A stretch of 64,000 nt of DNA from Thermoanaerobaculia bacterium (GTDB lineage: Bacteria > Acidobacteriota > Thermoanaerobaculia > UBA5066). A program made the position numbers and the translations under genes. Shown piece after piece: positions 211 to 60,150 of this stretch (positions are counted from its first letter, which is position 1; every line of letters begins with the position of its first letter). Under the pieces are notes generated by a model that had not been told where the DNA came from, made no database searches, and was given only the letters and a program-made list of their open reading frames with translations. The stretch lies in contig JBBRRY010000001.1 of the NCBI GenBank assembly GCA_038245905.1, positions 224,001-288,000 of the forward strand, written 5' to 3'.

Positions 211-804
211 TCAAGGCCGGAATATAAGGAATCGAGTCGTTCCGTATCGGCGGCGGTCGGCGGGCTCGAGACCCGACGGGCGATAGACCTCGTCGTCGCC
301 GCGTTCGTGAAACAGCCAGCCCGCCGGTCTGACGAGAGCGAGTAGAGATTGAAGATCGGATTGGGAATTTGCTCCGAAAGGGGGATCGTGGAAGACCACG
401 TCGAACAGGGAGACGCCTCGGTTCCCGAAAGGGCCCGCGGCGGCGCCTGCGATGTCGGCGCCCGAGACTCCGGCGCGTCCCTCTTCATCTTTCGAAGCAA
501 ATCTCTCTACGGACGTCACCTCGACGCGAGACGCATCCCCCGCACCCAGCCGCTCCAGATTCCCACTCAAAGCCCTCGCAACCATCCGGTCCGCCTCGAC
601 GAAGGTCGCGTGCTTCGCTCCGCGCGAGAGCGCCTCGAGCCCATACGCTCCCGAGCCCGCGCACGAATCGAGGACGCGCGCGCCGCGCACGGCCTCGCTG
701 AGGATGTCGAACGCGGCCTTGCGCGCGAGCTCGGTTGTCGGGCGGATGCCTTCGGGTACTTCGAGCCGGCGTCCCCGCCACAGGCCGCCCGTCAGGCGCA
801 CCAC
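211..804 (-). CDS. rsmD: 16S rRNA (guanine966-N2)-methyltransferase RsmD
   Basis: GGLWRGRRL, IRPT, VLDSCAGSGAYGLEALSRGA and FDVVFHDPPF motifs; an apparent extra loop precedes the DPPF strand. Confidence 0.9.
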   Translation of the reverse strand: MVRLTGGLWRGRRLEVPEGIRPTTELARKAAFDILSEAVRGARVLDSCAGSGAYGLEALSRGAKHATFVEADRMVARALSGNLERLGAGDASRVEVTSVERFASKDEEGRAGVSGADIAGAAAGPFGNRGVSLFDVVFHDPPFGANSQSDLQSLLALVRPAGWLFHERGDDEVYRPSGLEPADRRRYGTTRFLIFRP

Positions 805-806
805 GC

Positions 807-1526
807 TCAGCGCCTCTTCGCCGGAGAGGCTTCCGGCGGGCGTGACCCGGCCGCGGAGGGATCCTCGAACAGCCGCGGCAGATCGCCGCGGTATGCGAAG
901 ACCCTCATCTTGTAGCCTCCGTGCTCACCTCCCGGGGCGAGCTCCTCGAGCTCGAAGTCGTGATCCAGGGTGTCGTCGTGAACGACGCGATACCAGACCC
1001 CGTCGACCCGCCGCCGGAGAAACGCCCCGGGCTTCAGGGCTCCGGTGTCCCACTTCGTCTCGGCCAGATCCTGCTTTTCGAAGCGGTCTCGAAGATCTTC
1101 CAGCGCCCCCCGCGCCCGCCCCACTGCCAAGGGAAGCGAGACGAAATCGTCGAACGTATACAGGCGGGACCCTCCGGCGGGATCGACGATCTCGAGTGTG
1201 ATCCGCCGGCCGCCCGCGTCACCGAGGACCGATCGGCCCGGGTCGTCGACGTCCTTCGCCCGCACCGCGAGCGCCTCGAGACAGACCCCACGCACGACCG
1301 CCACCTCCTCGGGCGCCAGCGCCTTCCGGTCGACGATCCGCTCACCCCTGAACCCACGGACACGGACGAGAGCGCCGTCGTCGAAGAGTGCCACGCGCTC
1401 CATGCCGACGCCCTGGTGCGATTCGAGAGCGGCGACGAGGTGCGGGTCGCGCTTTTCGGGCGTCGGAACAGGTGCCGGGACGGCCGCCGGAGCGAGCAGA
1501 ACGAGGAGGAGCAGGCCTCCCATCAT
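807..1526 (-). CDS. hypothetical secreted protein
   Basis: Signal-peptide-like N-terminus MMGGLLLLVLLAPAA; 4-nt overlap with the upstream gene and 2-nt gap to rsmD. Confidence 0.7.
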   Translation of the reverse strand: MMGGLLLLVLLAPAAVPAPVPTPEKRDPHLVAALESHQGVGMERVALFDDGALVRVRGFRGERIVDRKALAPEEVAVVRGVCLEALAVRAKDVDDPGRSVLGDAGGRRITLEIVDPAGGSRLYTFDDFVSLPLAVGRARGALEDLRDRFEKQDLAETKWDTGALKPGAFLRRRVDGVWYRVVHDDTLDHDFELEELAPGGEHGGYKMRVFAYRGDLPRLFEDPSAAGSRPPEASPAKRR

Positions 1527-2494
1527 CGCGGCTCCAGTCCCGCGGCATGCCTCAGGGCCTTCGAAAAGTTCAAGCGCGACGCGATGGCGGCGCGCTCGGG
1601 CCGCGGCAGCGGCTCGAGGAGGCGTCGCCAGACTTCTCCTGGTTTCGGACGCGCATCCACCCCGCGCGGCCCGTCTGCAGATGTCTTCGGAGAAAGTACC
1701 GATAGATTTTTCTTAGAAGGAAATACGGGCCCCAACCACCCGGGAAGGACGTCACCGAAAAGTGAAGGGCCGCTCGCGAGGGCCGCCGCAGCCTCCCATT
1801 CACGTTCTAAGAAAATCTCTTCTATTCCTTTCCTCATTCGGTCGCCCGAGAGAGCTGCGAAAGCGCCTGCGGCTCTCGCCGCCTTCAACGCCTTCAGAAA
1901 CTCTCCGTCCCAGCCGAATCCGAGCCGCGCTGCGTACTTGACCGCGCGGTAGGCCCGCGTCGGATCGTCGACGAGCGATTTCGGATGGAGGAGTCGGATC
2001 TTCCTTGCTTCGAGGTCGGCGCGCCCTCCAAAGGGATCGAGCACGCGCCCGACGAGGCCGCGACGTCCGACCCGCCGCGCCATCGCATGGATCGTGAAGT
2101 CCCGGCGGCCGAGGTCGTCCTCGATCGTGGTCGTGCCGATCACGACCGGCAGACTGGCTGGCGACGGGTATTCCTCGCGGCGGGTCGCCGCGATATCGAC
2201 GCGGAGGCCGCTCGGCCCGCGGAGAGTCGCGGTCCCGAAACGGACGTGCGTCTTCTCGAGCGTCCAGCCGGGCAGAGCGCCCAGGCGGGCCGCAAACTCC
2301 AGAGCGCTCGCCGCACCTGCCTCGACGGCCAGATCGACGTCGCGAAGAGGGCGCCCAAGAAGGAGGTCGCGCAGCGCGCCTCCGACGAGCCACAGTCCCA
2401 CCTCGCGCCGGTCGGCAACCTCGCCCGCGCGCGCGAGATGAACCCCGATTGCTTCGGCATCGAGCCTGGGAACGGGCTCGCCGATTTCGCTCAT
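1523..2494 (-). CDS. tRNA nucleotidyltransferase / poly(A) polymerase family (class II NTase)
   Basis: LVGGALRDLLLG..DVD, FGTA, VDIAATRREEY, EDDLGRRDFTI and DDPTR motifs. Start set at ATG 2494, which overlaps the dnaE stop (ATGA). Confidence 0.85.
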   Translation of the reverse strand: MSEIGEPVPRLDAEAIGVHLARAGEVADRREVGLWLVGGALRDLLLGRPLRDVDLAVEAGAASALEFAARLGALPGWTLEKTHVRFGTATLRGPSGLRVDIAATRREEYPSPASLPVVIGTTTIEDDLGRRDFTIHAMARRVGRRGLVGRVLDPFGGRADLEARKIRLLHPKSLVDDPTRAYRAVKYAARLGFGWDGEFLKALKAARAAGAFAALSGDRMRKGIEEIFLEREWEAAAALASGPSLFGDVLPGWLGPVFPSKKNLSVLSPKTSADGPRGVDARPKPGEVWRRLLEPLPRPERAAIASRLNFSKALRHAAGLEPR

Positions 2495-6079: not shown

Positions 6080-7243
6080 ATGCGCTTCCTGTCTCTCGTC
6101 CTCAAGAACCTCCTCCGCAAGAAGACGCGGACGCTCCTGACGGTCGGTTCGGTCCTATTCCCCGTGTTTCTCGTCGCGTTCATGGCGACGTTCCTGAGGA
6201 CTCTCGCCCTTCCCGATCCGGCGCGCGAGCGCGGCCTCTACCGGCTCGTCACGCGGCACAAGGTTGGCCTCACGACACCTCTCCCGTATGGGATCCTCGC
6301 GAAGATCGCCCCCCTCGAAGGCGTCCGTGCGATCACGCCGATCGACCGTTTCGGCGGCCTCTATCGCGATGCGAGCGCCGGGAACGTCTTTCCGCGGTTC
6401 GCCGTGGATGCCGAGCAATTTCTCCGGGTCTTCGACGACGCGACGATCGTGAAGGGGTCGGCCGACGACTGGAAACGGGACCGGGCGGGCGGCCTCGTCG
6501 GGATCGCCCTCGTGAAGAAATACGGCTGGAAGATCGGCGACCGCGTCACGATCACAGGCACGCTCTATCCGGTGGACCTCACGTTCACGGTCCAGGGCGT
6601 CTATAGCCTCCCGTACGAGAACTCCGCGAGCATCTTCTTCCACCGCGCGTACCTCGAGGAGGCGTACCCGCCCTTCCGCGGCAACGTCTCGACCGTATGG
6701 ACTCGCTGCACGGACGCAGCCTGCGCCGGGCGGCTCCCGCGGCAGATCGATGACTTCTTCGAGAACTCACCCGCCCCGACGAAGACCGAGAGCGAGAACG
6801 CCTTCACGTTGGGTTTCGTCTCTCTCCTCGGGAACGTCCAGTTCCTCCTGACCTCGATGGGCGCGATCATCATCGGCGTCGTCGTCCTGATCGCGGCGAA
6901 TACGATCGCGCTCAACGTGCGCGAGCGTGTCGTCGAGGTCGCCGTCCTCCGGACGCTCGGTTTCTCGCGCATGCGGGTCGTCGGCCTCATCGTGAGCGAA
7001 AGCATTGCCCTTGCGGGCGTCGGCGGTGGCCTCGGATTTCTCCTGTTCGTGGCCGCGTTCTCGCGCCTCAAGAGCGCTCTCATGGAGACGAGGATGTCGC
7101 CCTTCGCCGCAGGAATGAAGATTTTCCCCGAGGTCGTCGCGCTCGCGGCGGCCGTCACGCTCGTCGTGGGCCTGCTCGCGGCGATCGTCCCAGCGGCGAG
7201 AGCCGCGCGGCGGCCCATCGTGGACGGCCTGCGCGCGCTTTGA
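6080..7243 (+). CDS. ABC transporter permease, MacB/FtsX family
   Basis: LKNLLRKKTRTLLT N-terminal TM, periplasmic domain, RERVVEVAVLRTLGF and PAARAAR. Start ATG 6080 preferred. Confidence 0.9.
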   Translation: MRFLSLVLKNLLRKKTRTLLTVGSVLFPVFLVAFMATFLRTLALPDPARERGLYRLVTRHKVGLTTPLPYGILAKIAPLEGVRAITPIDRFGGLYRDASAGNVFPRFAVDAEQFLRVFDDATIVKGSADDWKRDRAGGLVGIALVKKYGWKIGDRVTITGTLYPVDLTFTVQGVYSLPYENSASIFFHRAYLEEAYPPFRGNVSTVWTRCTDAACAGRLPRQIDDFFENSPAPTKTESENAFTLGFVSLLGNVQFLLTSMGAIIIGVVVLIAANTIALNVRERVVEVAVLRTLGFSRMRVVGLIVSESIALAGVGGGLGFLLFVAAFSRLKSALMETRMSPFAAGMKIFPEVVALAAAVTLVVGLLAAIVPAARAARRPIVDGLRAL

Positions 7244-7255
7244 CCGGGCGAGCGC

Positions 7256-7729
7256 CTAGAGCCAGCGGTGCGTGCGCGCCTTGAAGGCCCAGTACTCTTC
7301 CCCGAACTTCCGCTCGAGGTAGGCCTCCTCCCGGTCGATCACGAAACGCCGGAGCGCGAGCCATACGGGCGGCAGCGCCGCGAGAAGCCATGGCGTGTTC
7401 GCGATCAGCGCGATCCCCGCCACCCCGGCCGAGAGACCGACGTACATCGGGTTACGCGAGACGCGGTATGGCCCCGACGTCACGAGGGCGCTCACGGCGT
7501 GGTTCGGGTGCGGCGTCGTCCGCGCCCTCAGGAACATCGCGAGTGCCCAGCCTCCGAAGGCAAGACCGACGAGGGCGAGTGCGGAGCCCGCGATGCGGGC
7601 GGGCCCCTCGAGGGCCGGCGGGACCACCCGGACCGGGACGAGCCACTTCAGGAGGAAACCCGCCGCGAGCCCGAGCCCGAAGAGGACCGGCGGGATGACG
7701 GGGACGTTCGCGTGGGTTTCCGTCGGCAT
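7256..7729 (-). CDS. isoprenylcysteine carboxyl methyltransferase (ICMT/PEMT) family membrane protein
   Basis: LVTSGPYRVSRNPMY, EEAYLERKFGEEY and RW C-terminus; GGGGAG RBS before ATG 7729. Confidence 0.9.
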   Translation of the reverse strand: MPTETHANVPVIPPVLFGLGLAAGFLLKWLVPVRVVPPALEGPARIAGSALALVGLAFGGWALAMFLRARTTPHPNHAVSALVTSGPYRVSRNPMYVGLSAGVAGIALIANTPWLLAALPPVWLALRRFVIDREEAYLERKFGEEYWAFKARTHRWL

Positions 7730-7759
7730 GGCTTCTCCCCGCACAGGATACCCGCGCCT

Positions 7760-8494
7760 TTACCGCACGTCGCCGTACCAGTAGCGGTCCAGAAAGCGGG
7801 ACCCCTTCTGGCCGCGCCGAAGCACCTCGAGGGCGACGGCAGGCATCAGCCGGAAGTAGTGCCAGTCGCCGTACGCGTCGAATTTCCGGACGGACGCGAT
7901 TGCCTTGGCACTCCGGAGGCGCGTCAGGTGCTGGCCTCGGGGCCGGCCGAGGCGCCTCAGCGCGAAGAGCAGCGCCACGTCTTCGGCCACGAGCAGACTC
8001 TCGTCGTATCCGCCGATCGCCTCGAAATAGGATCTCGGGACGAACGTGGGGCCCGTGTCCATGCGCATCAGCCACACCATCGGCATGAGAGCGGCGTAGG
8101 TCAGCGCGAGCCCGATCGACATGCGCTCCAGACGCACCCCCGTCGCGCCGCCGACGACGCGACCCGTCGCGAGCGCCGCGTCGATCGCGTCGAACGTCCC
8201 GGGATGCATCCGGATGTCCGCGTCCACGAACACGAGGACCTCGCCGCGGGCCTCGTGGGCTCCCCCGTTCCGGACGGCGCCGATCACGCGTTTCTCGACT
8301 CTCACGACCCGGGCGCCCGTCGCGCGGGCGACCTCGGCCGTTCGGTCGGTCGAGATGTTGTCCGCGACGACCACCTCGACCCGCTCCGCGCCCCCGCGGT
8401 AGGCCCGGCGTGCCGCCTCGACCGTGTCGAGCAGTCGCGGCAGAACCTTCTCTTCGTTCCGGGCCGGAATGACGACCGAGAACCTCACTCCCAT
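7760..8494 (-). CDS. glycosyltransferase family 2
   Basis: FSVVIPARNEE, VVADNISTDRT, RNGGA, FVDAD (DxD), IGGYDE..AED. Start trimmed to ATG 8494 (GTG 8488 is an alternative). Confidence 0.9.
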   Translation of the reverse strand: MGVRFSVVIPARNEEKVLPRLLDTVEAARRAYRGGAERVEVVVADNISTDRTAEVARATGARVVRVEKRVIGAVRNGGAHEARGEVLVFVDADIRMHPGTFDAIDAALATGRVVGGATGVRLERMSIGLALTYAALMPMVWLMRMDTGPTFVPRSYFEAIGGYDESLLVAEDVALLFALRRLGRPRGQHLTRLRSAKAIASVRKFDAYGDWHYFRLMPAVALEVLRRGQKGSRFLDRYWYGDVR

Positions 8495-8562
8495 TCGAGT
8501 GTGCCGAATGCCATCGAAATCCAGAACAGCAGTGGATTCACGAGACGGGACCTCAGGCAGTC

Positions 8563-8961
8563 CTATGCCGGGCCCGGCGATCCCGGTTTCGGAAGGGGCG
8601 GCGCCTCCCTTTTCTCGTCGAGGAGGTGCCGGATCGCGAGGGCGGGGTGCCGCAGGAGCATCCGCGGCCCCGCGAAGCGCATGACCTCGTGCATCTGCTC
8701 GCGCTTGTCCTTCGTGTAGCAGTGGATCGGGCACTTCTTGCAGGTCGGCTTCTCCTCGCCGTACGGGCACTTCAGGAGCCGGTAGCTCGCGTACTCGAAC
8801 AGCCCCTCGCACGCCGCGCAGAGCTCGCCGTACGGGGCGCGCACATGGAGCGGGTGCGCCTCGCACCAGATGTGGAGCATCGCCGCGATCGTGCGCTGCT
8901 CGCGGCGGAGGCGCGGGGTCGTGAGAAGGAGGTCCTGGTGTTCCTTCGGGACGGCGATCAC
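8563..8961 (-). CDS. YgbA-like (nitrous oxide-stimulated promoter family) Cys-rich protein
   Basis: RLRREQRTIAAM..WC, LCAAC, RLLKCPYGEEKPTCKKCPIHCY, MRFAGPRMLLRHP. Confidence 0.85.
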   Translation of the reverse strand: MIAVPKEHQDLLLTTPRLRREQRTIAAMLHIWCEAHPLHVRAPYGELCAACEGLFEYASYRLLKCPYGEEKPTCKKCPIHCYTKDKREQMHEVMRFAGPRMLLRHPALAIRHLLDEKREAPPLPKPGSPGPA

Positions 8962-10289
8962 GGGAGTTTCAGACCCCGGTCGAGATGCTCCATCAGCACG
9001 TCCGGCCCCTCGAGCCCGACGCTCATCCGGATGAGGCCGGGGGTGATGCCGCGGGCGAGGCGGTCGGCCTCTGGGACGACGGCATGCGTCATCGTCGCGG
9101 GCTGCTCGACGTATGTGATGGCCCCACCGAGGCTCACGGCCAGCTCCGTCGGGACGTCCTTACGGGCGAGGTAGTTCATGAGCTTCTCGCCCGCTGACGC
9201 GCCACCCTTCACCTCGAACGAGATGAGGGAACCGCCGTCGCGCATCTGCTTTTTCACGACGTCCTTCTGCGGGAAGTCGTCGAAGCCGGGGTACGTCACG
9301 CGCGCGACCCCCGGGTGGCTCTTGAGAAAGGCCGCGATCATCGCGGCGCTTTCGCTCTGCGCCTTCTGGCGGACGGCAAGGGACTGGACCGTCATCGAGT
9401 TCAGCCACGAGTCGAACGGCGATGGCGTCGCACCGAGATCCTTGTACCAGGGAAAAAGGTCTGCCTTGAGGAAGCGGAACGGCCCGAGGAGGGCGCCGCC
9501 GACGGACGTCGAGTGGCCATTGATGAACTTCGTGAGCGAGTGGACGATGAAGTCCGCCCCGAGGCGGAAGGGCTGCTGGAGGTAGGGCGAGCAGAATGTG
9601 TTGTCGACGATTAGAGGGATGCCGAGCGCCTCGGTCAGGCGCGAAATCGCCTCGATGTCCGAGATGCGGAGCGTCGGGTTCTCGGGGGATTCGAGGAAGA
9701 CGGCCGCGATGTTCGGGTGCTGCTCGAGATGGCGCGCGACGTCGTTCACGTCGCCCGTGTTGCAGAACACGGCTTCGACGCCGAACTTCGACATGTTGCG
9801 CAGAAGGCTGTCCGTGCATCCGTAGATGTTGCCCGCGAGGACGGCGTCGCCCGCCTTGAGCAGCGAGAGGAGGAGCGTCGAGATCGCCCCCATGCCCGAA
9901 CCGAAGATGAGGCAGCCGATCGTCGGCTCCGTTTCGTCGGCGGCAAGCGCCTTCTCGATGACATGCTGCGCCTCGAGGCGGAAGAGAACGCGCTCGAGGT
10001 ACTCGGAGGTCGGGTTGCCAAGGCGCGTGTAAATGCGCGCGTACGGCCGCTCGCCGCCCTTCGACATGCCGAGGAAGCGGTCGGCGCCGTCCTTCACGTT
10101 TTGGAAGGGGAAGGTCGAGCGTTGGTGGATGGGCGGCAGCCCGGTGCCCGCCGCGAGCGCGCGGAAAATGCCTTCGTCCATCTGGTGGACGTCGTCGCGC
10201 ACCCAGCGGGTCTTGCGGTCGACCCACCACTCCCAGAACGAGAAGCGCGCGGCGCCGTGGAGGACGGGGGAAGGCGAGGTGGTGCTCAT
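8958..10289 (-). CDS. PLP-dependent Cys/Met metabolism enzyme (methionine gamma-lyase / cystathionine gamma-synthase family)
   Basis: YTRLGNPT, SGMGAI, ESPENPTL, VDNTF, HSLTKFINGH (PLP lysine), AVSLGG. Start ATG 10289. Confidence 0.9.
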   Translation of the reverse strand: MSTTSPSPVLHGAARFSFWEWWVDRKTRWVRDDVHQMDEGIFRALAAGTGLPPIHQRSTFPFQNVKDGADRFLGMSKGGERPYARIYTRLGNPTSEYLERVLFRLEAQHVIEKALAADETEPTIGCLIFGSGMGAISTLLLSLLKAGDAVLAGNIYGCTDSLLRNMSKFGVEAVFCNTGDVNDVARHLEQHPNIAAVFLESPENPTLRISDIEAISRLTEALGIPLIVDNTFCSPYLQQPFRLGADFIVHSLTKFINGHSTSVGGALLGPFRFLKADLFPWYKDLGATPSPFDSWLNSMTVQSLAVRQKAQSESAAMIAAFLKSHPGVARVTYPGFDDFPQKDVVKKQMRDGGSLISFEVKGGASAGEKLMNYLARKDVPTELAVSLGGAITYVEQPATMTHAVVPEADRLARGITPGLIRMSVGLEGPDVLMEHLDRGLKLP

Positions 10290-10372
10290 GCGGAGGAATT
10301 TAGGCCCTTTGCGGCCCCGGTGCACTGATGCGCGTGGCGGGGACTCCCCTGGGTCGTAGACTAGGGTCTTCC

Positions 10373-12223
<1,851 letters not shown>

Positions 12224-12257
12224 CGGGCCCTCTTGTCTCGTGCTCCCCGGACCCGGC

Positions 12258-12686
12258 TCACGGAATCGCGATCGCCTTCAGGATGTTGACGACCATCCCC
12301 GGAAGGCGACCCGGTTCGTGTTCGAGAGAGGACAGGACGCTCCCGATCGTCGTGGCGCCGTCGAGCTCGGCCCAATTGGAGACCTCCTCGGCGCTCGGAC
12401 TGAGATAGGCCATGTTCCACGACGCGAAGGCGCGCTCGTCGGTCTCCTCCTCGTGGAAGACTTTGACGCCTTTGTGCCTCGGGTCGCGCTCGATCCTCTC
12501 CATCAAGGCGAGGACATCATCCTTCTCCCCTTCGAGGATCTGGAGGAAGGCGCCGTCGACGTATACGAGCACGCCGGTGATCCCGCATACCCGGTTTCGG
12601 ATCCGGGACTCCGCCAGCATTCCCTCGAGGTCCGGCGTGGCGAGGCCCGGCGCCGCCTCGGAAGAGTAGATCAGCCGAAAGGGCAT
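12258..12686 (-). CDS. BLUF domain blue-light sensor (short, stand-alone)
   Basis: LIYSS (Tyr), RNRVCGITGVL, FLQILEG (Gln), DPRH, RAFASWNM (Trp/Met); GAAGGAGG RBS. Confidence 0.92.
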   Translation of the reverse strand: MPFRLIYSSEAAPGLATPDLEGMLAESRIRNRVCGITGVLVYVDGAFLQILEGEKDDVLALMERIERDPRHKGVKVFHEEETDERAFASWNMAYLSPSAEEVSNWAELDGATTIGSVLSSLEHEPGRLPGMVVNILKAIAIP

Positions 12687-12738
12687 GGAGCGCCTCCTTC
12701 GGACGGAGTCTAGAGCCCCGGGCCCCCGTTTCGTTCAG

Positions 12739-12754
12739 GTTTGCGCACGCAAAC
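12739..12754. promoter_or_regulatory. palindrome GTTTGCG-CA-CGCAAAC, possible operator
   Basis: Perfect 7-bp inverted repeat in the divergent BLUF/ECF intergenic region. Confidence 0.4.
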
Positions 12755-12817
12755 TCCGCAAGGGTCGGGATCTGACAAGACGAGCGCCTTCGCGCGTCTT
12801 TCCCTACGATGGTCGCA

Positions 12818-13393
12818 ATGGCCGAAGAGCTGGACGGGTTCCTCCCGGTTTCGGAAGTCTCGTGGGGAGACGCGCTTCGCGCGCCTTTCGCCGCTCTTGC
12901 CGCCGGAGACCGGGACGCGCTCGAGACGGTCTGGCTCCTCGCCTCGCGGCGGCTCTACGCGCTCGCGCTCTGGCGTACGGGAAATCTCGAGGACGCCGCC
13001 GACGTCGTTCAGGATGTCTTCGTGAGGCTTGCGTCCGGGCGGGCCGACCTCCGGAAAGTCGAAGTGCCGCACGTCTGGCTCCTCGCGGTCGCGCACCGCG
13101 CGGCCGTGGACGTGACACGCCGCCGGGCGCGCCGCCGCGCCGAGCCGCTCGAGAACGCCGGCTTCCTCGTCACGAAAGACGGGGACCCCGAGCGGGACGC
13201 CCGTGCCGGCGAGTTGTCACGAGCCGTCGCGCTCCTGCCGGAGACCCAGCGCGAGGCCGTCGCGCTCCGGCATTTCGGCGGCCACTCGTTCCGCGAGATC
13301 GCGCGGATTACCGGCGTCCCGACGTTCACTGCTGCGAGCCGCTGCCGCCTCGGCCTCGCGCGGCTGCGCGCGCTCCTTGGAGGATCACGATGA
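12818..13393 (+). CDS. ECF-type RNA polymerase sigma factor
   Basis: DAADVVQDVF (region 2), WLLAVAHRAAVD, LPETQREAVAL..SFREIARITG (region 4). ATG 12818 lies 7 nt after TACGAT; ORF track start is 12809. Confidence 0.9.
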   Translation: MAEELDGFLPVSEVSWGDALRAPFAALAAGDRDALETVWLLASRRLYALALWRTGNLEDAADVVQDVFVRLASGRADLRKVEVPHVWLLAVAHRAAVDVTRRRARRRAEPLENAGFLVTKDGDPERDARAGELSRAVALLPETQREAVALRHFGGHSFREIARITGVPTFTAASRCRLGLARLRALLGGSR

Positions 13394-13725
13394 GCCACGA
13401 CCTCTTCCCGCCCGGCTTCGAGCCGCCTCCCCCGCCGCCGGACCTCCGCGATCGCGTCCTTGGCGCCGCGGCGCGCGCTTTTGAAGCGGCGCCCCTCGCA
13501 GACCTGTGGACAAGGGCCTTCCGCAGCCACATGCTGCGCGTCGCGTGGGCGGCCTCGGTCGCGGCCCTCGCGGCGGCCCACCTTTTCGCTCCGCTGCGCC
13601 CGGCGCGCAGCGAGGACCCTGAGCCGCCCGAGATCCGCCAACTCGCCCGCCTGCCGCGCATCGACAGCCGCAATCTTCCCACCGAAAGCACGGCCCCTCC
13701 CGCACCACCGGAGAAACGCTCATGA
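13390..13725 (+). CDS. putative single-TM anti-sigma factor
   Basis: ATGA overlap with the sigma stop. MSHDLFPPGFEPPPPPPDLRDRVL.. is followed by one hydrophobic helix (VAWAASVAALAAAHLF). Function inferred from position. Confidence 0.6.
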   Translation: MSHDLFPPGFEPPPPPPDLRDRVLGAAARAFEAAPLADLWTRAFRSHMLRVAWAASVAALAAAHLFAPLRPARSEDPEPPEIRQLARLPRIDSRNLPTESTAPPAPPEKRS

Positions 13726-14813
13726 AGAACGCCCGTACTCTCGTTCTCGCCGCTCTCACCGTCGTCCTCGTCCTCGCCGGCGGACTCGCCTGGCGCCTCT
13801 ACGGGCGACCCGCGGCCACGCCGGCTCATCCGGTCGCCGCCCTGCCGCGTTTCACGGCGGCGGCGCCGCCGGCCCGCGTTCCGGCGCCGAAGCCTGTCGT
13901 CCTCGCCGAGCTGAGGCCGCCCTGCTGGGGCTGCCCGGAGGCCGAGAAGTGGCCCGTGCAATTCCGGACCGACCTCGATCTCCTCGCACCGCTCGGCGAC
14001 GGTGCCACTAACGCGGCGCTCTGGCTCAAAGACTTCGCGCGCCCGGTCGGTTCGCGGCTCGCCGAGGCCGAGGCCGCAATGAAGAGGCGCGTGGAGGGTC
14101 GGGATGGCGTCGGCCTCGTCCTGCCGCCGGAAGACCCGCTCCTTCGAGAGGCGGAATCGTGGGCGGACCAGTCGACGATGCGCTTCTATCCGCACGTCTG
14201 GGCGCTCGAGGGCTTCTCGACTCCAATTCCGAACCTCCTCGTCGCACTTTCGTTCGCGCGTTCGTGGGTCGAGCGCGCGCGGCTGCATCCCGACTCGCCC
14301 GAAGCGCTCGAGGATTGCCGGCGTGCGCTCCGCTGGGGCCGCCTCCTGCGCCAGGAGGACGTGACCGTCATCCAGGACCTCATCGGTCTCGCGTGCATCC
14401 GGGTCGGTGCCGACGAGATGTACGACCTCGCCAGGCGGCGGGGCGATCAGCCCCTCATGCTCGCCGCCGCGATTGTCGTTGGCGAACATGCTCCCCAGCG
14501 GCTTCGGACGGCGCAATCCCTGACGAGGGTCGGCCTCGCGCCCGGCGACATGGGCCGAGGCGCCCTCGAACCGAACGACAAACTGGTCGACGAGGTCATC
14601 GGCATTGCCCGGAACGACCCGGACCGCCGCTTCCGTCTCGAGGCGATCACCCAGCTCGCGTTCGCGAGATCGAAGGGCTCACGCGAGCAGAAGAACAAGG
14701 CGGAAAATGCTCTCGACAGCCTCTTGTCCCCTCCGAGGAGCGAGGCCGACGCCGCCCAAGCGCGATGGGCGCGTCGCGTCGACGTGCGGGAACTCTCCCG
14801 GTCCCTCGAGTAG
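13722..14813 (+). CDS. hypothetical membrane-anchored protein with CWGC motif
   Basis: N-terminal TM, Pro-rich linker, PPCWGCP, then a helical domain; ATGA-coupled to the upstream gene. Confidence 0.75.
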   Translation: MKNARTLVLAALTVVLVLAGGLAWRLYGRPAATPAHPVAALPRFTAAAPPARVPAPKPVVLAELRPPCWGCPEAEKWPVQFRTDLDLLAPLGDGATNAALWLKDFARPVGSRLAEAEAAMKRRVEGRDGVGLVLPPEDPLLREAESWADQSTMRFYPHVWALEGFSTPIPNLLVALSFARSWVERARLHPDSPEALEDCRRALRWGRLLRQEDVTVIQDLIGLACIRVGADEMYDLARRRGDQPLMLAAAIVVGEHAPQRLRTAQSLTRVGLAPGDMGRGALEPNDKLVDEVIGIARNDPDRRFRLEAITQLAFARSKGSREQKNKAENALDSLLSPPRSEADAAQARWARRVDVRELSRSLE

Positions 14814-14828
14814 CGCCGCCGCCCGCCG

Positions 14829-15401
14829 TCAGCGCGCCGCGGCCGCCTTCTCCGCGATGAGCCGCGCCCGCGTGTACGGGATCAGCCCGCCCGCGTCGAT
14901 GATCGCCTGACGGGCGAACGGGAGCGGCACGATGTCGAACGCCGTGCGCTTCGTGCGGTTCTCGACTCCGCCGCCGTCGAAGCCGATCTCGTCGCCCTCG
15001 TCCGCGGCGAAACCGGGCGCGACGACCACCTTGAGACCAAGGTTGATCGCGTTCTGCAGGAAGATGCGCGCGAAGCTTTTCGCGACGACGACGACGTCGA
15101 GGCCCTTAAGGCACGACGCGGCCTGCTCGCGCGAGGAGCCGCAGCCGAAGTTGTCGCCCCCGGAAATCACGGCGCCCTTCGGGATCGACTTCGCCTTGAC
15201 GGCCGCCTGGAACTCCGGGACGTCCGCGAACGCGAACGCGGGAGTCTCGGACGGGAGCACGGTCGCCATGTAGCGGCCGGGGTAAATGAGGTCGGTCGAC
15301 ACGTCGTCGCCGAGGCTCAGGATGACGCGGGCCGTCGGGACCGCCGGCGGCGCCGCCGCCTTCCGGCCGCGGGCTGATCCGGCCTTTTTCGCACGGGGCA
15401 T
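14829..15401 (-). CDS. 3-isopropylmalate dehydratase / homoaconitase small subunit (LeuD/HacB type)
   Basis: DDVSTDLIYPGRY, NFGCGSSREQA, SFARIFLQNAINLG, GGLI. Confidence 0.9.
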   Translation of the reverse strand: MPRAKKAGSARGRKAAAPPAVPTARVILSLGDDVSTDLIYPGRYMATVLPSETPAFAFADVPEFQAAVKAKSIPKGAVISGGDNFGCGSSREQAASCLKGLDVVVVAKSFARIFLQNAINLGLKVVVAPGFAADEGDEIGFDGGGVENRTKRTAFDIVPLPFARQAIIDAGGLIPYTRARLIAEKAAAAR

Positions 15402-15402
15402 C

Positions 15403-16707
15403 TCAGTGCTCCTTCCGCGGGTCCGTGATGACACCCGTGAGGGCCGACGCCGCCGCGACGGCGGGCGACGCGAGGTAGACGTCGGCTTCCGGGTTCCCCA
15501 TCCGCCCCTTGAAGTTCCGGTTCGTCGTCGAGATCGCCGTCTCGCCGTCGCCGAGCGCCCCCTCGTGGATCCCGAGACAAGGGCCGCAGCCCGCGTTCAT
15601 GACGACGGCGCCGGCGGCCATGAAGTCCGCGAGATAGCCGAGCTTCATCGCCTCGGCGTAAATCTTCGCGGAGGCTGGAAAGACGAGCATGCGCGTCCCG
15701 GCCGCCACGTGTCGCCCTCTCACGATGCGCGCGGCCTCGGCGAGGTCGTCGAGCCGCCCGTTCGTGCACGAGCCGATGACGACCTGGTGGACAGGAATCC
15801 CCTCGACCGCCGTGACAGGTTTCACGTTGTCTACGGTGTGCGGGCACGCGACGAGCGGCACCAGCGACGAGACGTCGATTGCGATCGTCCGTTCGTACAC
15901 CGCATCCGCATCGCTCGTCACGAGGTCGAGCGGATCGGTCACGCCCGCCTCCTCGCGGAGGTAGCGCACCGTCTCCTCGTCGGCCGGCACGATGCCCGAC
16001 GTGGCGCCCGCCTCGACGGACATGTTGCACAGGACGAGGCGGCCCGAGGTCGAGAGGCGCGCGATGGTCTCGCCGGTGAACTCGAGGACGCGGAAGTTCG
16101 CGCCCTGCGCCGTCAGGACACCAATGAGGTGCAGGATGAGGTCCTTCGGGCCCACGAGGCCGGGAAAGCGCCCGGAGATCTCGACGCGGATCGTCGCGGG
16201 GACCTCGATGTTCAGGGCGGCGCCGAGCGTCCAGGCGCTCGCCATCTCCGTGGCGCCGATCCCGAACGCAAACGCCCCGAGCGCACCGTGGCTCGTCGTA
16301 TGAGAGTCCGTCCCGACGACGACCATGCCGGGCCGCACGTAGCCACGCTCGGGGAGGATCTGGTGGCAGATGCCACCCGTGTCGCCGCGGATGTCGTGGA
16401 ACTTCGCGATCCCATGTTCGGTGACGAAGGCGCGGACCATCTTCTGATTCGTTGCGGTCTTCGCGGACTCGGCAGGGACGCGGTGGTCGAAGATGATGGC
16501 GATGCGTGAGGGGTCCCACGGCTTCGGGGCGACGCCCGTTCCCTCGTGGATCTCCTTGAACTGGTTGATCACGAGGGCTGCGTTCTCGTGCGACATCGCG
16601 AGGTCGACACGCGGCTCGACGACATCCCCTGCGCGGACCGCCTCCTTCCCCGACGCCCGTGCGAGAATCTTCTCGACGATAGTGGCCCCCAAGTTCTTCT
16701 TCTTCAT
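15403..16707 (-). CDS. 3-isopropylmalate dehydratase / homoaconitase large subunit (LeuC/HacA type)
   Basis: TIVEKIL, DH, GICHQ, GTDSHT, IGSCTNGR, GCGPCLG, STTNRNFKGRMG. Start ATG 16707. Confidence 0.93.
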   Translation of the reverse strand: MKKKNLGATIVEKILARASGKEAVRAGDVVEPRVDLAMSHENAALVINQFKEIHEGTGVAPKPWDPSRIAIIFDHRVPAESAKTATNQKMVRAFVTEHGIAKFHDIRGDTGGICHQILPERGYVRPGMVVVGTDSHTTSHGALGAFAFGIGATEMASAWTLGAALNIEVPATIRVEISGRFPGLVGPKDLILHLIGVLTAQGANFRVLEFTGETIARLSTSGRLVLCNMSVEAGATSGIVPADEETVRYLREEAGVTDPLDLVTSDADAVYERTIAIDVSSLVPLVACPHTVDNVKPVTAVEGIPVHQVVIGSCTNGRLDDLAEAARIVRGRHVAAGTRMLVFPASAKIYAEAMKLGYLADFMAAGAVVMNAGCGPCLGIHEGALGDGETAISTTNRNFKGRMGNPEADVYLASPAVAAASALTGVITDPRKEH

Positions 16708-16718
16708 CGTCGTTCCTT

Positions 16719-17846
16719 TCAATTCTTCGGGAGAGCGCGGGCGACGGCTTCGCCCATCTCGCGGCACGTCGAGGCACCACCCATGTCGTACGTTCGGACC
16801 TTTCCCTCGAGGAGAACCTTCGCGACGGCGGCCTCGACGGCGCGGCCCTTGGCGCCCTCTCCGAGCCAGTCGAGCATCATTTTCGCGGCGAGGATTGTCG
16901 CGATCGGGTTCACCTTGTTCTGCCCCGTGTACTTCGGCGCCGAGCCGTGCGACGGCTCGAACACGCCGAGCTTTACGCCGATGTTTCCCGAGCAGCCAAA
17001 CCCGAGGCCGCCGACCATCTGTGCGCAGAGGTCGGAAATGATGTCCCCGTAAAGGTTCGGCGCGACGAGGACGTCGTAATTCGCGGGGTTCTTCAGGAGC
17101 CACATGCAGATTGCGTCGACGTTCGCTTCGTCCACCTGGATGTGCGGATAGTCCGCCGCAACCTTGCGCGCCTCCTCGAGGAAGACGCCGTCCGAGGCGC
17201 GGACGACGTTCGCCTTGTGGACGACCGTGACCTTCTTTCGCTTGTTCGTGCGCGCGAACTCGAACGCGGCGCGCACGATGCGTTCGGAGCCCTTACGCGT
17301 GTTGATCTTGCAGGAGATCGCGTAGTCGTCCGGCCTGAGGTCCTTGAATGGCGCGAAAGCCGGCGCAAGCTTCGCAAGTGTCTCCGAAAGCTCCGGAGGC
17401 ACTGGGGAAAACTCGACGCCCGCGTAGAGATCCTCCGTGTTCTCACGGAAGACGACGAGATCGAGGCCTTCCTTGAAGTTGAGCGGGTTGCCTGCGTAAC
17501 CCTTGCAAGGCCTCAGGCACACGTACAGGTCGAAGAGCTGCCGCATCCGCACGATCGGCGAGCGGTAGACGAGGCCCTTTTCCCTCAGAGCGGGCGCCAG
17601 CTCGTCGTGAGCCGCTTTCGACGGCTTGGACGTGATCGCGCCGAACATCGCGGCGTCCACGTTTCGGAGGAGGTCGACCGTGCGGGCGGGAAATGCATCC
17701 CCTTCCCGGCACCAGAACTCCCAGCCGATGTCGCCGTGACGGTACTCGGCGTCGAGGCCCGCCGCGTCGAGAACGAGCCGCGTCGCGTCCATGACTTCCA
17801 CGCCCACGCCGTCCCCCGGGAGCCACGCAATCCGGTAACGAGGCAT
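16719..17846 (-). CDS. isocitrate/isopropylmalate/homoisocitrate dehydrogenase family
   Basis: LPGDGVGVEV, FRENTEDLY, HKANV, NLYGDIISD, FEPSHGSAP. Confidence 0.92.
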   Translation of the reverse strand: MPRYRIAWLPGDGVGVEVMDATRLVLDAAGLDAEYRHGDIGWEFWCREGDAFPARTVDLLRNVDAAMFGAITSKPSKAAHDELAPALREKGLVYRSPIVRMRQLFDLYVCLRPCKGYAGNPLNFKEGLDLVVFRENTEDLYAGVEFSPVPPELSETLAKLAPAFAPFKDLRPDDYAISCKINTRKGSERIVRAAFEFARTNKRKKVTVVHKANVVRASDGVFLEEARKVAADYPHIQVDEANVDAICMWLLKNPANYDVLVAPNLYGDIISDLCAQMVGGLGFGCSGNIGVKLGVFEPSHGSAPKYTGQNKVNPIATILAAKMMLDWLGEGAKGRAVEAAVAKVLLEGKVRTYDMGGASTCREMGEAVARALPKN

Positions 17847-17961
17847 AAGCACCCCCGCATAAGGGTGCGCGCTCGCGCCCGCCGTGCCCGTGACGCAGAT
17901 GCATCAGGGACCATTCTTTACACAAGCCCTGTTGCAGGCTTTCCGCCGGATCTCCGGGCGG

Positions 17962-19266: not shown

Positions 19267-19424
19267 CGACCGCAAGAGTACCCTTCTGCGCCCGGGGCGG
19301 CCGCTCTCGCACTGCTGCCTCGGGAAACTCCCTCGCGATCCAGCTCCAGTTCCGTCACCTGCCGCACTGGGATCCGAAACTCTAGCCCCGGTACCCGGCG
19401 CCGCCATCCGCCTACAATCGCCGG

Positions 19425-20270: not shown

Positions 20271-20272
20271 AG

Positions 20273-24667: not shown

Positions 24668-25453
24668 TCAGAGGGCCGCTCGTGCGATCCGGCCGGGCGG
24701 GCCCCACAGCGCGAGCACGCGTTTCACGTAGTCGAGGGTCTCCCGGTAAGGCGGCACGCCGCCGTATTCCTCCACCGCATGCTCTCCCGCGTTGTACGCC
24801 GCCAGGATGAGATCCGCGTTCGTCTCACCGAACCGCTCGGCGAGCTCGGCGAGATACGCGACGCCGCCACGGATGTTGTCCCGCGGATCGAACGGGCGCT
24901 TCACGCCGAGGCGCCGCGCCGTGGCCGGCATGAGCTGCATGAGACCGCGCGCTCCCTTCCGGGACACGGCATGCGGGTGGCCGTTCGACTCGACCTTGAT
25001 GACGGCCGCGATGAACGCGGGATCGACTTTGTGCTCCTTCGCGGCCGCGAGAATCTGCGAGGAATAGGGGGACGAGAAGGAGGAATAGGGCGATTCCGAG
25101 AGGGTGCGGACGGAACGGCTTGCTTCCAAAGGCGCGCCGACCGGGACCCCACCGGCGTCTCCCGGCTTCGTCGGCGCCGGACGCTCGTACTCGTCGTCCA
25201 CGATGCGCGCGACGACGTCGAGGGGAATCGTCATCGAGCCGCCGCCCACGAGCCCGACCGTGAGCCGGTCGCCGTCCACGACCTCGTAGCTCGCGACCCG
25301 GAGATGTCGCCCGTCCTCGAACACGACGAGCGTGGCGGCCGCTGGCGCCGCGCAGAGGCCTAGAAGAGCGAACCCTGCACAGACGAGGACGATCCCTCTT
25401 CCCCTTCTGAGCAAATCCCTCTCTTTCTTCTCTTTCCGACTCATCGCCATCAT
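24668..25453 (-). CDS. lytic transglycosylase (SLT domain)
   Basis: AVIKVES, SRKGARGLMQLMPATA, NIRGG..YL, AAYNAGE, PPYRET..YV. Start ATG 25453 overlaps the xerD stop. Confidence 0.92.
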   Translation of the reverse strand: MMAMSRKEKKERDLLRRGRGIVLVCAGFALLGLCAAPAAATLVVFEDGRHLRVASYEVVDGDRLTVGLVGGGSMTIPLDVVARIVDDEYERPAPTKPGDAGGVPVGAPLEASRSVRTLSESPYSSFSSPYSSQILAAAKEHKVDPAFIAAVIKVESNGHPHAVSRKGARGLMQLMPATARRLGVKRPFDPRDNIRGGVAYLAELAERFGETNADLILAAYNAGEHAVEEYGGVPPYRETLDYVKRVLALWGPPGRIARAAL

Positions 25454-41649: not shown

Positions 41650-41733
41650 TCACCTTCGAAGAAGCCGGGCCTCGGCCCCCGAGCGAGAGATGACGTACCT
41701 CCGCGTGTCCTCCGGCGGCAGACGAAAGCAAAA

Positions 41734-59170: not shown

Positions 59171-59244
59171 CGGCGCGCAATCTACGGTAAGCGCCCGTCC
59201 CGGTCAAAGACCAGAGCGAGCTGCGCGCAGCCCTGAAGGCTCCG

Positions 59245-59290
59245 GGAACCGAATCTCCGCACACGGGTCCAAACGTGCGAAAGGAGATTC
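59245..59290 (+). promoter_or_regulatory. ECF-type promoter candidate overlapping an inverted repeat that covers the RBS
   Basis: GGAACC (59245-59250)-N16-GTCCAA (59267-59272); inverted repeat GAATCTCC / GGAGATTC. Confidence 0.4.
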
Positions 59291-59292
59291 TC

Positions 59293-60150
59293 ATGCGCCA
59301 CCAGGTTCTCACCGCCCTGCTCCTCGCCGCCGGGGCCGCAAACGCCGCCTCTCCATCGGGTTTCGGTCTCGATGTTCTCGTGAACGGGAGCCCCCGCCCC
59401 GAATTCGCCGCGCGGGGCACCGTCTACGTGGAGGCGCTGAAGGGGCACGACTTCTCGCTGAGGGTCACGAACCCCCTCGGAGTCCGGGTGGCCGTCGCGC
59501 TCTCCGTGGACGGCCTCAACACGATCGACGCGAAGCACACGTCCGCGATTGACGCCCGCAAGTGGGTCCTCGACCCGTACCAGACGGTCGTGATTCCCGG
59601 CTGGCAGGTCTCCGGCGAGACGAGCCGGAAGTTCTTCTTCACGGGCGAAAAGGGCTCGTACGGTGCGAAGCTGGGCGAGACGTCGAATCTCGGGGCGATC
59701 GAGGCGGTGTTCTTTCGGGAGAGGCTCCCGTACAGGGCTCAGCGGCCGTGGAGCGGGGGAAAAGAGGAAGACAAGATTTCTTCGAATGAAAGAGGAAAAG
59801 GCGCCGGACGACTCGACGAGCCTCGGGTCGAGGCGGCCGCCGGCGCGGCGCAGCTTCCCGCCCCGAGCGAGAGCGTCGCCCGCGACCATTCAAAGAAATC
59901 CTCTTCTCCCCCCCCCTCTTCTCTCGCCGACGAGATGGCCGCCACCGGCATCGGCAGCCGGACGCGCTTTGACGTCACGCGCGTCAACCTCGACCTCGAG
60001 GATTCGCCGGCCGCGTCCGTGCGCCTTCGTTACGAGTTCCGGCCGCAGCTCGTCGCGCTGGGCGTCCTGCCCAGCGACCCGGATCCCGCCCGGATCGCCC
60101 GCCGCGAGCGTGCCCGCGGCTTCGAGGACTTCTGCCCCGAACCCCGCTGA
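59293..60150 (+). CDS. hypothetical secreted protein
   Basis: Signal peptide (ANA), AAGGAG RBS, globular segment VALSVDGLN..WVLDP..IPGWQ..NLGAIEAVFFRE. Confidence 0.8.
   Translation: MRHQVLTALLLAAGAANAASPSGFGLDVLVNGSPRPEFAARGTVYVEALKGHDFSLRVTNPLGVRVAVALSVDGLNTIDAKHTSAIDARKWVLDPYQTVVIPGWQVSGETSRKFFFTGEKGSYGAKLGETSNLGAIEAVFFRERLPYRAQRPWSGGKEEDKISSNERGKGAGRLDEPRVEAAAGAAQLPAPSESVARDHSKKSSSPPPSSLADEMAATGIGSRTRFDVTRVNLDLEDSPAASVRLRYEFRPQLVALGVLPSDPDPARIARRERARGFEDFCPEPR

Follow-up and report, generated by a model that had tools for sequence, protein, structure and literature searches.

To our knowledge, few genome-wide signal words have been described (Chi, KOPS, USS/DUS and HIP1 among them), and every one of them has exposed a part of the DNA machinery. 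REPINs lie outside genes and are copied as complete units together with a RAYT, and Rickettsia palindromic elements are inserted as a whole conserved element, which is read through as protein inside genes. For REPINs and BIMEs, units of about 100 bp that consist of two short inverted repeats have been described, with hundreds per genome (PMC3337134, PMC3116915). In the intragenic invertons, inverted repeats inside genes flank a short segment (PMC10028968). The uptake words USS (Pasteurellaceae) and DUS (Neisseriaceae) are described as lineage-specific and hyper-abundant, present on both strands, mostly genic, generated by substitution at tolerated peptides and showing little link to gene function, with 1,471, 765 and 1,892 copies per genome (PMC2817400). 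The cyanobacterial word HIP1 (GCGATCGC) is an 8-bp palindrome acting singly and recognised by methyltransferases (PMC13756078, PMC4390886). It is hyper-abundant, conserved within and between ORFs and was judged to be selected; a function at the peptide or RNA level or in gene regulation was not found by its authors, who suggested that it acts in chromosome structure (PMC5861425).

Here, we describe a paired word for whose reader no system described so far accounts. It was followed from the window, that is, the whole 64-kb stretch of DNA analysed, into the genome of 3.8 Mb with 67.8% GC. A single copy, called arm, has the consensus [purine tract]-GATT(T)(T)CTT[A/T/C]GAA-GGTGAAGAGG, with GGTGAAGAGG on the inner side of the pair. 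The GAT...GAA core described in the original prediction was recovered, but the element is longer than this core: the AT-rich core of 12-13 bp lies in an asymmetric, non-palindromic arm of about 40 bp, the purine-rich strand bias spans about -20 to +18, and the information content tapers gradually at the ends with no sharp boundary.

The motif is far above chance expectation. Its words top the 10-mer over-representation ranking of the genome, where TTTCTTAGAA has 109 copies vs 0.54 expected and GATTTTCTTAGAA and GATTTCTTTGAA occur 37 and 53 times, respectively. In the window, GATTTNYTNNGAA is present in 5 copies vs 0.03 expected, a number reached in 0/100 shuffles, and GATTTCTTYGAA in 3 copies vs 0.02 expected. 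A position weight matrix (PWM) trained on the whole genome, with scores of at least 18, at least 20 and, for a partner, at least 10 used as cut-offs, detects about 650-700 arms (702 score at least 18), a density of about 1 per 5.8 kb, so that about 230-380 loci share this single 40-bp word. On the window this PWM yields 16 arms forming 8 units, each with a + arm followed by a - arm. They are listed below with their PWM score and, where given, the score at the mapped site in genome G014, the other species of the pair compared.

366-378, + strand: unit 1 arm in rsmD, antisense to the gene, coding FGANSQ just after the DPPF motif of RsmD; PWM 19.8, G014 site 25.6; length unchanged vs sister genera.
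491-503, - strand: unit 1 arm in rsmD, sense, coding ERFASKDEEG and starting a loop of 20-30 residues absent from sister genera; PWM 30.6, G014 site 18.7.
1706-1718, + strand: unit 2 arm in the PolyA_pol nucleotidyltransferase gene, antisense, peptide FPSKKNLS in a variable loop; PWM 31.5, G014 site 25.9.
1805-1817, - strand: unit 2 arm in the same gene, sense, peptide EEIFLERE; PWM 44.4, G014 site 47.1; aligned at the DNA level to three sister genera, it shows substitutions only and no gaps.
20287-20299, + strand: unit 3 arm at the start of proA, sense; PWM 30.3, G014 site 38.6; recognisable at 8/9 usable proA loci within the genus.
20477-20488, - strand: unit 3 arm in proA, antisense, TTFKEIN; PWM 27.1, G014 site 29.0; absent in one relative, L013, with a 27-column gap.
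25092-25102, + strand: weak unit 4 arm inside the SLT gene, antisense; PWM 13.0 only.
25405-25417, - strand: unit 4 arm in the spacer upstream of the SLT gene; PWM 38.3, G014 site 43.0.
29237-29249, + strand: unit 5 arm in hmgA, sense, LFFFFEGEG; PWM 22.4, G014 site 22.4; vs four sister genera substitutions only, mostly synonymous, to A/T-ending codons.
29355-29367, - strand: unit 5 arm in hmgA, antisense; PWM 19.3, G014 site 19.3; length unchanged vs sister genera.
32674-32685, + strand: unit 6 arm in the 5' part of the 3-hydroxyacyl-CoA dehydrogenase gene, antisense; PWM 32.3, G014 site 25.8.
32947-32958, - strand: unit 6 arm in the spacer upstream of that gene; PWM 43.4; the sole arm of 12 without a counterpart at the mapped G014 site.
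41617-41629, + strand: unit 7 arm in the spacer just upstream of lnt; PWM 36.9, G014 site 36.1.
41655-41665, - strand: weak unit 7 arm in the same spacer; PWM 14.3; when the unit is folded in isolation as RNA (z -0.48), it pairs with the 41617 arm.
59775-59786, + strand: unit 8 arm in ORF 59275-60150; PWM 44.5; outside the fetched syntenic DNA.
59889-59900, - strand: unit 8 arm; PWM 32.0.

All 17 sites of the original prediction read as written there, and the 13-mer said to recur exactly at 1805 and 41617 as well as the 12-mer at 20477 and 59889 do so. Two of its sites were not retained: the partner proposed at 25117-25129 is unsupported, the PWM favouring 25092-25102, itself weak (score 13), and 32752-32764 does not reach a score of 10. 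Its gene labels match Pfam (RsmD-type Cons_hypoth95, PolyA_pol, Aldedh for ProA, SLT, HgmA_N, 3HCDH and LNT_N); for ORF 59275-60150 the Pfam search matched no family.

The inward arrangement noticed in the window holds genome-wide. Among adjacent arm pairs at 50-300 nt, 203 are +- in comparison to 9 -+, 24 ++ and 27 --. A partner scoring at least 10 within 400 nt lies on the inner side of 427 of the 553 strong arms and on the outer side of 32, and thus the functional unit is not a single copy as for USS/DUS. The arms are independent draws from a single consensus, and partners show no co-variation; for example, the flank identity of true partners (0.342 and 0.395) is that of shuffled partners (0.336 and 0.392). 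This independence fits a reader that recognises the sequence of the individual arm and not a stem.

We tentatively favour, at slightly less than even confidence, a two-site, genus-specific and cis-acting DNA signal, obligatorily paired and read by a putative sequence-specific factor. Each arm would be a recognition site that is asymmetric and spans about 40 bp, and two of them head to head, 50-300 bp apart, would form the unit. The reader would most simply be a dimeric or multimeric DNA-binding protein recognising each arm by its own sequence. We propose that it acts on duplex DNA, requires both arms in inward orientation and would therefore synapse or bridge them. The signal would have been installed in place, chiefly by point substitutions, either synonymous to rare A/T-ending codons or conservative replacements, and also by small indels where loops, termini or spacers tolerate them. 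Purifying selection would have kept it since the ancestor of the genus, or else a bias in transmission of the kind proposed for uptake sequences, and candidate benefits are nucleoid organisation and the labelling of DNA as the cell's own in uptake or recombination. We consider it somewhat short of probable that a DNA transaction needing two head-to-head 40-bp sites evolved in the genus or was acquired by it, for which a synapsing protein is the candidate, used in self-recognition during uptake or recombination or in local chromosome folding.

If true, no fewer than 265 genes, conserved housekeeping enzymes included, have been recoded for this signal by substitution, and it would be an undescribed paired-site counterpart of USS/DUS/HIP1. 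Long, oriented and working in pairs, the word is strong enough to prevail over the codon preference of conserved housekeeping genes throughout a genus of widespread but uncultured Acidobacteriota, and identifying its reader would probably reveal a new DNA-binding or DNA-transfer system.

The original prediction had named a looping or nucleoid-organising protein as a possible reader. The DNA-level signal stands, but this reader is not supported: helical phasing of the arm spacing was not significant (best period 9.0 nt, R 0.17, about 48 periods tried), and the loci are not evenly spaced but clumped along contigs of up to 347 kb (CV 1.23 vs 1.00 for random placement). Neither of these results is expected for a strict looping or domain-boundary role. 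No reader was identified among the families searched, which were ParB_N, ComEC and N6_N4 methyltransferase. The genus has two copies of ParB_N, and so do its sister genera. The methyltransferase family PF01555, the only such family tried, is not found in G000 and is patchy within the genus; in contrast to HIP1, the paired motif is long and non-palindromic and has no genus-specific methyltransferase in this one family.

By analogy to USS and DUS, the word may instead be a self-recognition signal for natural transformation, a possible, if rather unlikely, explanation. Here, the uptake or recombination machinery would prefer word-bearing DNA, site-improving mutations would therefore spread by molecular drive, and in this way the word would be written into genes by substitution. 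Shared with these is a lineage-specific, hyper-abundant word whose hundreds of copies occupy both strands and lie in spacers but mostly in genes, are placed by substitution and show little link to host gene function. The word is restricted to one genus of Thermoanaerobaculia, in which it was found in 18/18 and 9/9 genomes, whereas counts elsewhere are at background and 71 kb of syntenic DNA from the sister-genus genome G072 contain zero AT-rich patches. The genus comprises GC-rich soil and sediment bacteria known as uncultured MAGs, and for binning the paired word would be a sharp taxonomic marker.

Alignments to the motif-less sister genera indicate that the arms were written mostly by substitution: the sense arm of the nucleotidyltransferase gene and both hmgA arms align without gaps, and the sister-genus peptides are sometimes already near the motif (EELL-E, FFF-GEG). 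Such hosting of substitutions by tolerant or pre-adapted peptides is in line with an uptake signal. Conservation of the signal at orthologous sites is shown by comparison of one species pair and, for proA, of 5-9 species. At the mapped G014 sites, an arm scoring at least 18 is present for 11 of 12 window arms vs 0/120 controls (control maximum 1.8), and four-fold sites elsewhere are only 55% identical to G014 (2795/5046), synonymous divergence being close to saturation. The arm pair at the start of proA (5' end) is present in 5/5 re-oriented relatives. Conservation at orthologous sites beyond neutral expectation is a feature shared with HIP1, which is reported in a 2024 preprint to raise transformation efficiency.

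ComEC was found in 12/12 genomes of the genus searched, as an uptake signal would have it, but also in 25/29 sister-genus genomes without the word, and is therefore non-discriminating. Furthermore, USS and DUS are several-fold denser than the arms and known uptake words act singly, whereas the present word is paired, about 40 bp long and asymmetric, with host DNA between the arms; the uptake model predicts no obligatory head-to-head pairs 50-300 bp apart.

It is unlikely that the units act as an RNA or single-stranded DNA structure, in which, on every transcript or unwound strand, a purine-rich arm and then its complement would close a long-range stem recognised by a protein or nuclease; such a stem could, for instance, serve the processing or stability of mRNAs or form a recombination site of the attC type. 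In minimum-free-energy folds of isolated RNA, the arms do close the unit in 4/5 window units (z -3.2, -2.1, -1.7, -0.5), loci with several arms nest like brackets, and divergent spacers are poor in fully intergenic arms (29/132 arms vs 35% of intergenic bases). Complementarity is, however, not specific to the pair: partners have 3039 Watson-Crick matches vs 3002 +/- 32 for shuffled partners, wobble-tolerant combinations give no partner-specific excess, and only 48% of the compared positions are complementary. Core lengths of partners agree in 77/226 units vs about 88 expected if independent, and at this chance concordance an AT-rich stem would often carry bulges. In addition, a stem alone does not explain the orientation bias of 203 to 9, and Rfam at gathering score gave 0 matches in the 64-kb window.

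Quite improbable is an origin from mobile elements, whether the arms are regarded as inverted repeats of MITEs, as a REPIN-like doublet or as ends bound by a transposase or invertase, and whether or not such a (possibly domesticated) enzyme can excise or invert the enclosed segment. Individually recognised inverted ends in strict inward orientation, with variable spacing tolerated above a lower limit of about 30-40 bp, would be expected of a transposase or invertase synapse, and an inverted doublet of short repeats in hundreds of copies resembles REPINs and BIMEs. The interiors, on the other hand, are host coding sequence and mutually unrelated, in agreement with the earlier view that these are not simple MITE insertions. 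A BLAST search among 226 interiors gave 17 non-self rows and only one family of 4 related interiors, the host codon periodicity is kept (GC at positions 1/2/3 of 0.74/0.55/0.81 vs 0.71/0.49/0.83 outside), and the catalytic DPPF motif of RsmD falls within a unit interior. Because the interiors are unrelated and keep this periodicity, neither MITE nor REPIN copies account for the units.

Like Rickettsia palindromic elements and in-frame MITEs, the repeats are translated within genes, but no conserved interior exists, several arms arose without length change vs outgroups, boundaries fade gradually and units lie at orthologous sites across species. The RAYT family Y1_Tnp was not found in G000 and was found, as a partial match, in 1/11 other genomes of the genus, compared with 25/29 in sister genera; reverse transcriptase (RVT_1) was found in 0/12 genomes of the genus, and a 22-base arm word had zero matches among 2.9 million viral contigs. 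Inverted repeats within genes around a short segment are also known from intragenic invertons. In contrast to these, no inversion was seen, the contigs of X1, the one run that holds the window, having no strand-changing joint at the arms, although contigs drop rare forms. Conserved catalytic regions of housekeeping genes are involved as well, and one 40-bp word at so many loci in such regions does not resemble phase variation.

The explanation that the motif merely reflects the encoded proteins and their codon usage, or picking by eye, has practically no probability left and is refuted by the codon-shuffle control, since, although some arms overlie near-motif peptides and 87 and 79 genic matches scoring at least 20 survive synonymous shuffling, the real genes hold 500 such matches and 165 +- pairs (9 and 7 in two shuffles), 136 arms are intergenic, every frame and both strands are in use, and the word is absent from sister genera that encode the same proteins.

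This also supports the original claim of a nucleotide-level signal kept despite coding constraint. Inside called genes lie 500/653 arms (77%, compared with extragenic REPINs), a share that is approximate because the calls come from our own crude codon-usage caller. Genic arms lie on the gene's own strand in 261/545 cases, and thus on coding and template strands as had been stated. Arm density falls about 6-fold from the lowest-GC3 fifth of genes (3.38 per 10 kb) to the highest (0.58), a gradient pointing to a cost or tolerance effect and not identifying a function. In the stop-making frame, where the arm centre would give an in-frame TAG or TAA, the centre is A in 1/77 sense and 4/128 antisense arms, in comparison to 106/184 and 82/156 in the other frames and 87/139 in intergenic arms. 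The arms avoid in-frame stops and are compatible with translation; the rare-codon clusters and odd loops that the word makes should be expected in annotation and protein modelling.

An AT-cored motif of about 40 bases, called an arm here, recurs throughout the source genome, mostly in units in which a + strand arm is followed by a - strand arm, head to head. The sites listed in the original prediction were confirmed letter for letter in the window (17 of 17), and the two core patterns are enriched there, with 5 and 3 occurrences against 0.03 and 0.02 expected, respectively. In the whole assembly (3.80 Mb in 113 contigs, 67.8% GC), GATTTTCTTAGAA is present 37 times and GATTTCTTTGAA 53 times. 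Furthermore, the top over-represented 10-mers under a third-order Markov model are words of this motif, among them TTTCTTAGAA (109 against 0.54 expected) and ATTTTCTTAG (47 against 0.20). Alignment of the copies revealed an element longer than its core of 11–13 bp, G-A-T-T(1-3)-[C/G]-T-T-N-G-A-A. The outer flank is a purine-rich tract with a gradual onset from about -20, the inner flank reads G-G-T-G-A-A-G-A-G-G with a purine bias up to about +18, and the arm boundaries are gradual, without sharp ends. An nhmmer search with a seed alignment (165 matches at E<=0.01) was too insensitive for such a short motif; instead, three length-variant PWMs, each covering the core plus 14 nt on either side, were trained iteratively. 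These detect 702 arms at a score of >=18, 653 at >=20 and 564 at >=24. The variable positions of 139 intergenic arms display few and weak associations (MI 0.08–0.13 bits), which may come from the alignment of length classes, and no bearing on a copy-paste origin is drawn from them.

The inward-facing arrangement, noticed by eye at a few loci, holds genome-wide: adjacent arms (score >=18, 50–300 nt apart) comprise 203 +- pairs, compared to 9 -+, 24 ++ and 27 --. Likewise, of 553 strong arms, 427 face a partner on the opposite strand (score >=10, at most 400 nt away) on their inner side, and 32 have one on the outer side. Loci with 4 to 7 arms show a bracket-like nesting, e.g., ++--, +-+- or +---. 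The interior between two arms measures 20–370 nt, the bulk being about 60–170 nt, and in genic units its length is not biased toward multiples of three (68/53/48 by remainder). A helical phasing of the arm spacing was rejected, as no period was left after multiple testing, and so was an even spacing of the 380 loci (arms clustered within 400 nt), which are somewhat clumped (CV 1.23 vs. 1.00 +/- 0.06 for random positions).

Gene context was taken from a crude codon-usage gene caller (3,174 genes, 93.6% of the genome). At a score of >=20, 500 arms are genic, 136 intergenic and 17 at gene edges; because of this split, non-coding DNA (6.4% of the genome) is about 3-fold enriched in arms, although most arms are genic. 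A signal kept at the DNA level despite coding constraint had been proposed, and this is borne out by shuffling synonymous codons within each gene, upon which genic matches drop from 500 to 87 and 79 and genic +- pairs from 165 to 9 and 7. The protein sequence accounts for a small part of the signal only. Arms use all frames, are spread evenly along the gene length and lie on the gene's own strand in 261 of 545 genic cases. A link to start or stop codons was rejected, with 18 units spanning a start and 18 a stop where 26 and 25 are expected at random, and the junctions touched by units have the same shares of co-directional, divergent and convergent arrangement as found genome-wide. Among genes of >=450 nt, 265 of 2,722 bear arms. 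Arm density falls steadily with gene GC3, the lowest fifth having 3.38 arms per 10 kb and the highest 0.58 (about 6-fold less), as would be expected if arms made of rare codons are costly in strongly codon-biased genes.

Arms within genes are translated and under constraint. In a count that depends on the crude gene calls, which themselves require open frames, A is the default centre base, found in 87 of 139 intergenic arms and, in harmless frames, in 106 of 184 and 82 of 156 genic ones; where it would produce an in-frame TAG or TAA, it is limited to 1 of 77 arms in sense and 4 of 128 in antisense orientation, with C or T used instead. Here, the informative point is that stop-prone frames still host arms, only with an alternative centre base.

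Conservation in orthologs was observed in a relative of the same genus (G014), which is syntenic with window positions 211–53,819 and has proteins 53–92% identical there. Between both genomes, four-fold degenerate sites outside the arms are 55% identical (2795 of 5046). Of 12 window arms, 11 are matched on the same strand at the mapped position with scores of 18.7–47.1, the single exception being the spacer arm at 32947; none of 120 control positions reaches 14 (maximum 1.8). At the 5' end of proA, a PWM scan found the pair in 5 of 5 re-oriented relatives. The proA alignment comprises 9 usable same-genus loci, the minus-strand loci L002, L005, L007 and L011 being left out, and the re-oriented scan covers three of those species. 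In locus L012 the left arm is missing and the right arm degenerate, and in L013 the right arm is missing, with a gap of 27 columns; these two loci hint that an arm may be lost after its partner has gone. G014 also has a unit at 38802/39061 that is without a strong counterpart in the source genome, and therefore some turnover of units takes place. As a side observation, about 13 kb of genes (window 6080–19275) are absent from the otherwise syntenic stretch of G014. This segment contains no arm scoring >=16 and one weak match (10.1 at 17466), and could have been inserted later without acquiring the signal so far.

Some units of the window (positions of the + and - arm)
366 (+) and 491 (-), in rsmD (214–804), where the Pfam RsmD match is split at an insertion and outgroup matches break at residue 102
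1706 (+) and 1805 (-), in the NTase gene (PolyA_pol)
20287 (+) and 20477 (-), proA
29237 (+) and 29355 (-), in hmgA
59775 (+) and 59889 (-), in an ORF of 291 residues without Pfam family (59275–60150); among the strongest units of the window (arms 44.5 and 32.0)

The origin of arms in genes was followed in protein and DNA alignments with outgroups. These are sister genera from the family in which the word is absent and the gene order around the window is preserved. Against them, no length change was seen for four arms: sense in the NTase gene, antisense in rsmD and both in hmgA. Where the outgroups read GA(G/C)GAGCTCCTC...GAG, the NTase gene of the carrier has changed to GAAGAGATTTTCTTAGAA; hmgA differs mainly by synonymous changes that give A/T-ending codons, and additionally by exchanges of Y to F and D to E. 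Other arms are present at termini or in variable loops. Here, the proA left arm lies at the start codon or just ahead of it, the NTase antisense arm lies within a loop of variable length, and the rsmD sense arm opens an Ala/Gly-rich insertion of 20–30 residues, located between the arms directly before FDVVFHDPPF, which the sister genera do not have. Taken together, this indicates that the arms were formed in situ, through substitutions at positions where the peptide tolerates them and through small indels elsewhere.

Within the sampled genomes, the exact word tested is confined to one genus; different words may exist in other lineages. GATTTCTTWGAAGG has 61 copies in the source genome and 23–128 in each of 18 other genomes of the genus, its reversed control has 0 copies, and the word was not found in 12 genomes from two other families of the order. 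TTTCTTAGAAGG reaches 45–138 copies per genome within the genus (9 of 9 genomes), but has 0 copies in 6 genomes from four other genera of the family and 0–2 copies, like the control, in a sample of 135 further genomes of the class, the tallies including two genomes (G019 and G024) that are both among the non-matching ones. In four sister genera, no comparable or alternative AT-rich word or patch was found in 19–71 kb of syntenic DNA each. A search of one genome per species (185,579 species) with a 20-base arm word returned at least 118 stretches; among the matches listed, 78 of 80 are titled Thermoanaerobaculia, Acidobacteriota or Acidobacteria MAGs, and the other two are an "uncultured bacterium" and a contig of 42–43% GC labelled Aquifex, which was rejected as a carrier since its lone 20-mer match is treated as chance. 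The viral contig collection was searched with a 22-base arm pattern and gave no match. Separately, proB-proA (window 19425–21613) has strong matches only within the genus, gives no match or a weak partial one (E about 1e-4) in two other families of the order and is missing from the syntenic stretch in four sister genera.

Each arm by itself fits a shared consensus, the orientation is strict, the spacing loose and pair-specific complementarity absent, which argues for a factor that reads each arm and requires a head-to-head pair. A paired protein-binding DNA signal is the reading tentatively favored here. In the simplest model, a putative bridging or synapsing DNA-binding protein would read the paired arms, and local chromosome folding is a candidate function. 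By the introduction of arms through substitution, their conservation at orthologous positions and the sharp limit to one genus, the system is grouped with USS/DUS (PMC2817400) and HIP1 (PMC5861425). Five protein families (Y1_Tnp, RVT_1, ComEC, ParB_N and N6_N4_Mtase) were rejected as the reader, none being genus-specific among 41 genomes of the family. Of these, ParB_N has two matches in most of the 41 genomes, and N6_N4_Mtase is patchy in the genus and was not found in the source genome. One of the two ParB_N genes of the source genome is located at 217197–217466 of the window's contig, roughly 6.5 kb ahead of the window.

An uptake-type drive, in which the arms would serve self-recognition in DNA uptake, is unlikely. 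ComEC is encoded in the genus throughout (12 of 12 genomes), as it is in most sister genomes.

That the arms form a structure in RNA or single-stranded DNA is quite unlikely. They are able to pair, since in isolated RNA folds the arms close the unit in 4 of 5 cases (z -0.5 to -3.2). However, this complementarity is not specific to the pair: Watson-Crick matches between partners amount to 3039 vs. 3002 +/- 32 for shuffled partners, and G.U-type combinations show no partner-specific excess. Partners have equal core lengths in 77 of 226 units (expected: about 88), their centre bases vary almost independently of each other, and flank identity is at the level of shuffled partners. Rfam gave no family match for the window, and no RNA run is listed as containing the window stretch.

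A role of the arms as transposase or invertase ends is highly unlikely. In 159 genic units, the interior retains the GC periodicity of its gene over the three codon positions (0.74/0.55/0.81 vs. 0.71/0.49/0.83 outside), and the arms themselves are without this periodicity (0.51/0.43/0.50). A BLAST comparison of the interiors of 226 units returned 17 non-self rows with one family of four, and the rsmD interior contains the catalytic DPPF motif. The interiors are thus unrelated host DNA, and therefore the units are not copies of a mobile element. An autonomous element was rejected as well, since 16 long +- pairs (0.4–5 kb) surround unrelated ordinary genes, and so was an identity as REPIN, MITE or RPE, for which several defining features were tested and not found. 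The literature searched for uptake sequences, REPINs, invertons, HIP1 and RPEs gave known families only, and no paper in it links Thermoanaerobaculia with an inverted repeat. Y1_Tnp (RAYT) was not found in the source genome; within the rest of the genus 1 of 11 genomes has a match, vs. 25 of 29 sister-genus genomes; RVT_1 is present in 0 of 12 vs. 12 of 29. By these two families, the carrier genus looks unusually poor in mobile elements. One sister-genus genome (G181) has 17 RVT_1 matches, several of them clustered on one contig, which suggests a retroelement expansion in that genome.

An artefact is practically inconceivable as the source of the signal.

The single DNA run containing the window (X1) consists of contigs, in which no joint was seen at any arm; it may represent the source sample. 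At window 20294–20296, one contig of this run lacks two individual nucleotides of the proA left arm (depth 50/122); this may reflect strain variation, or the contig may belong to another arm and be misplaced at this site.
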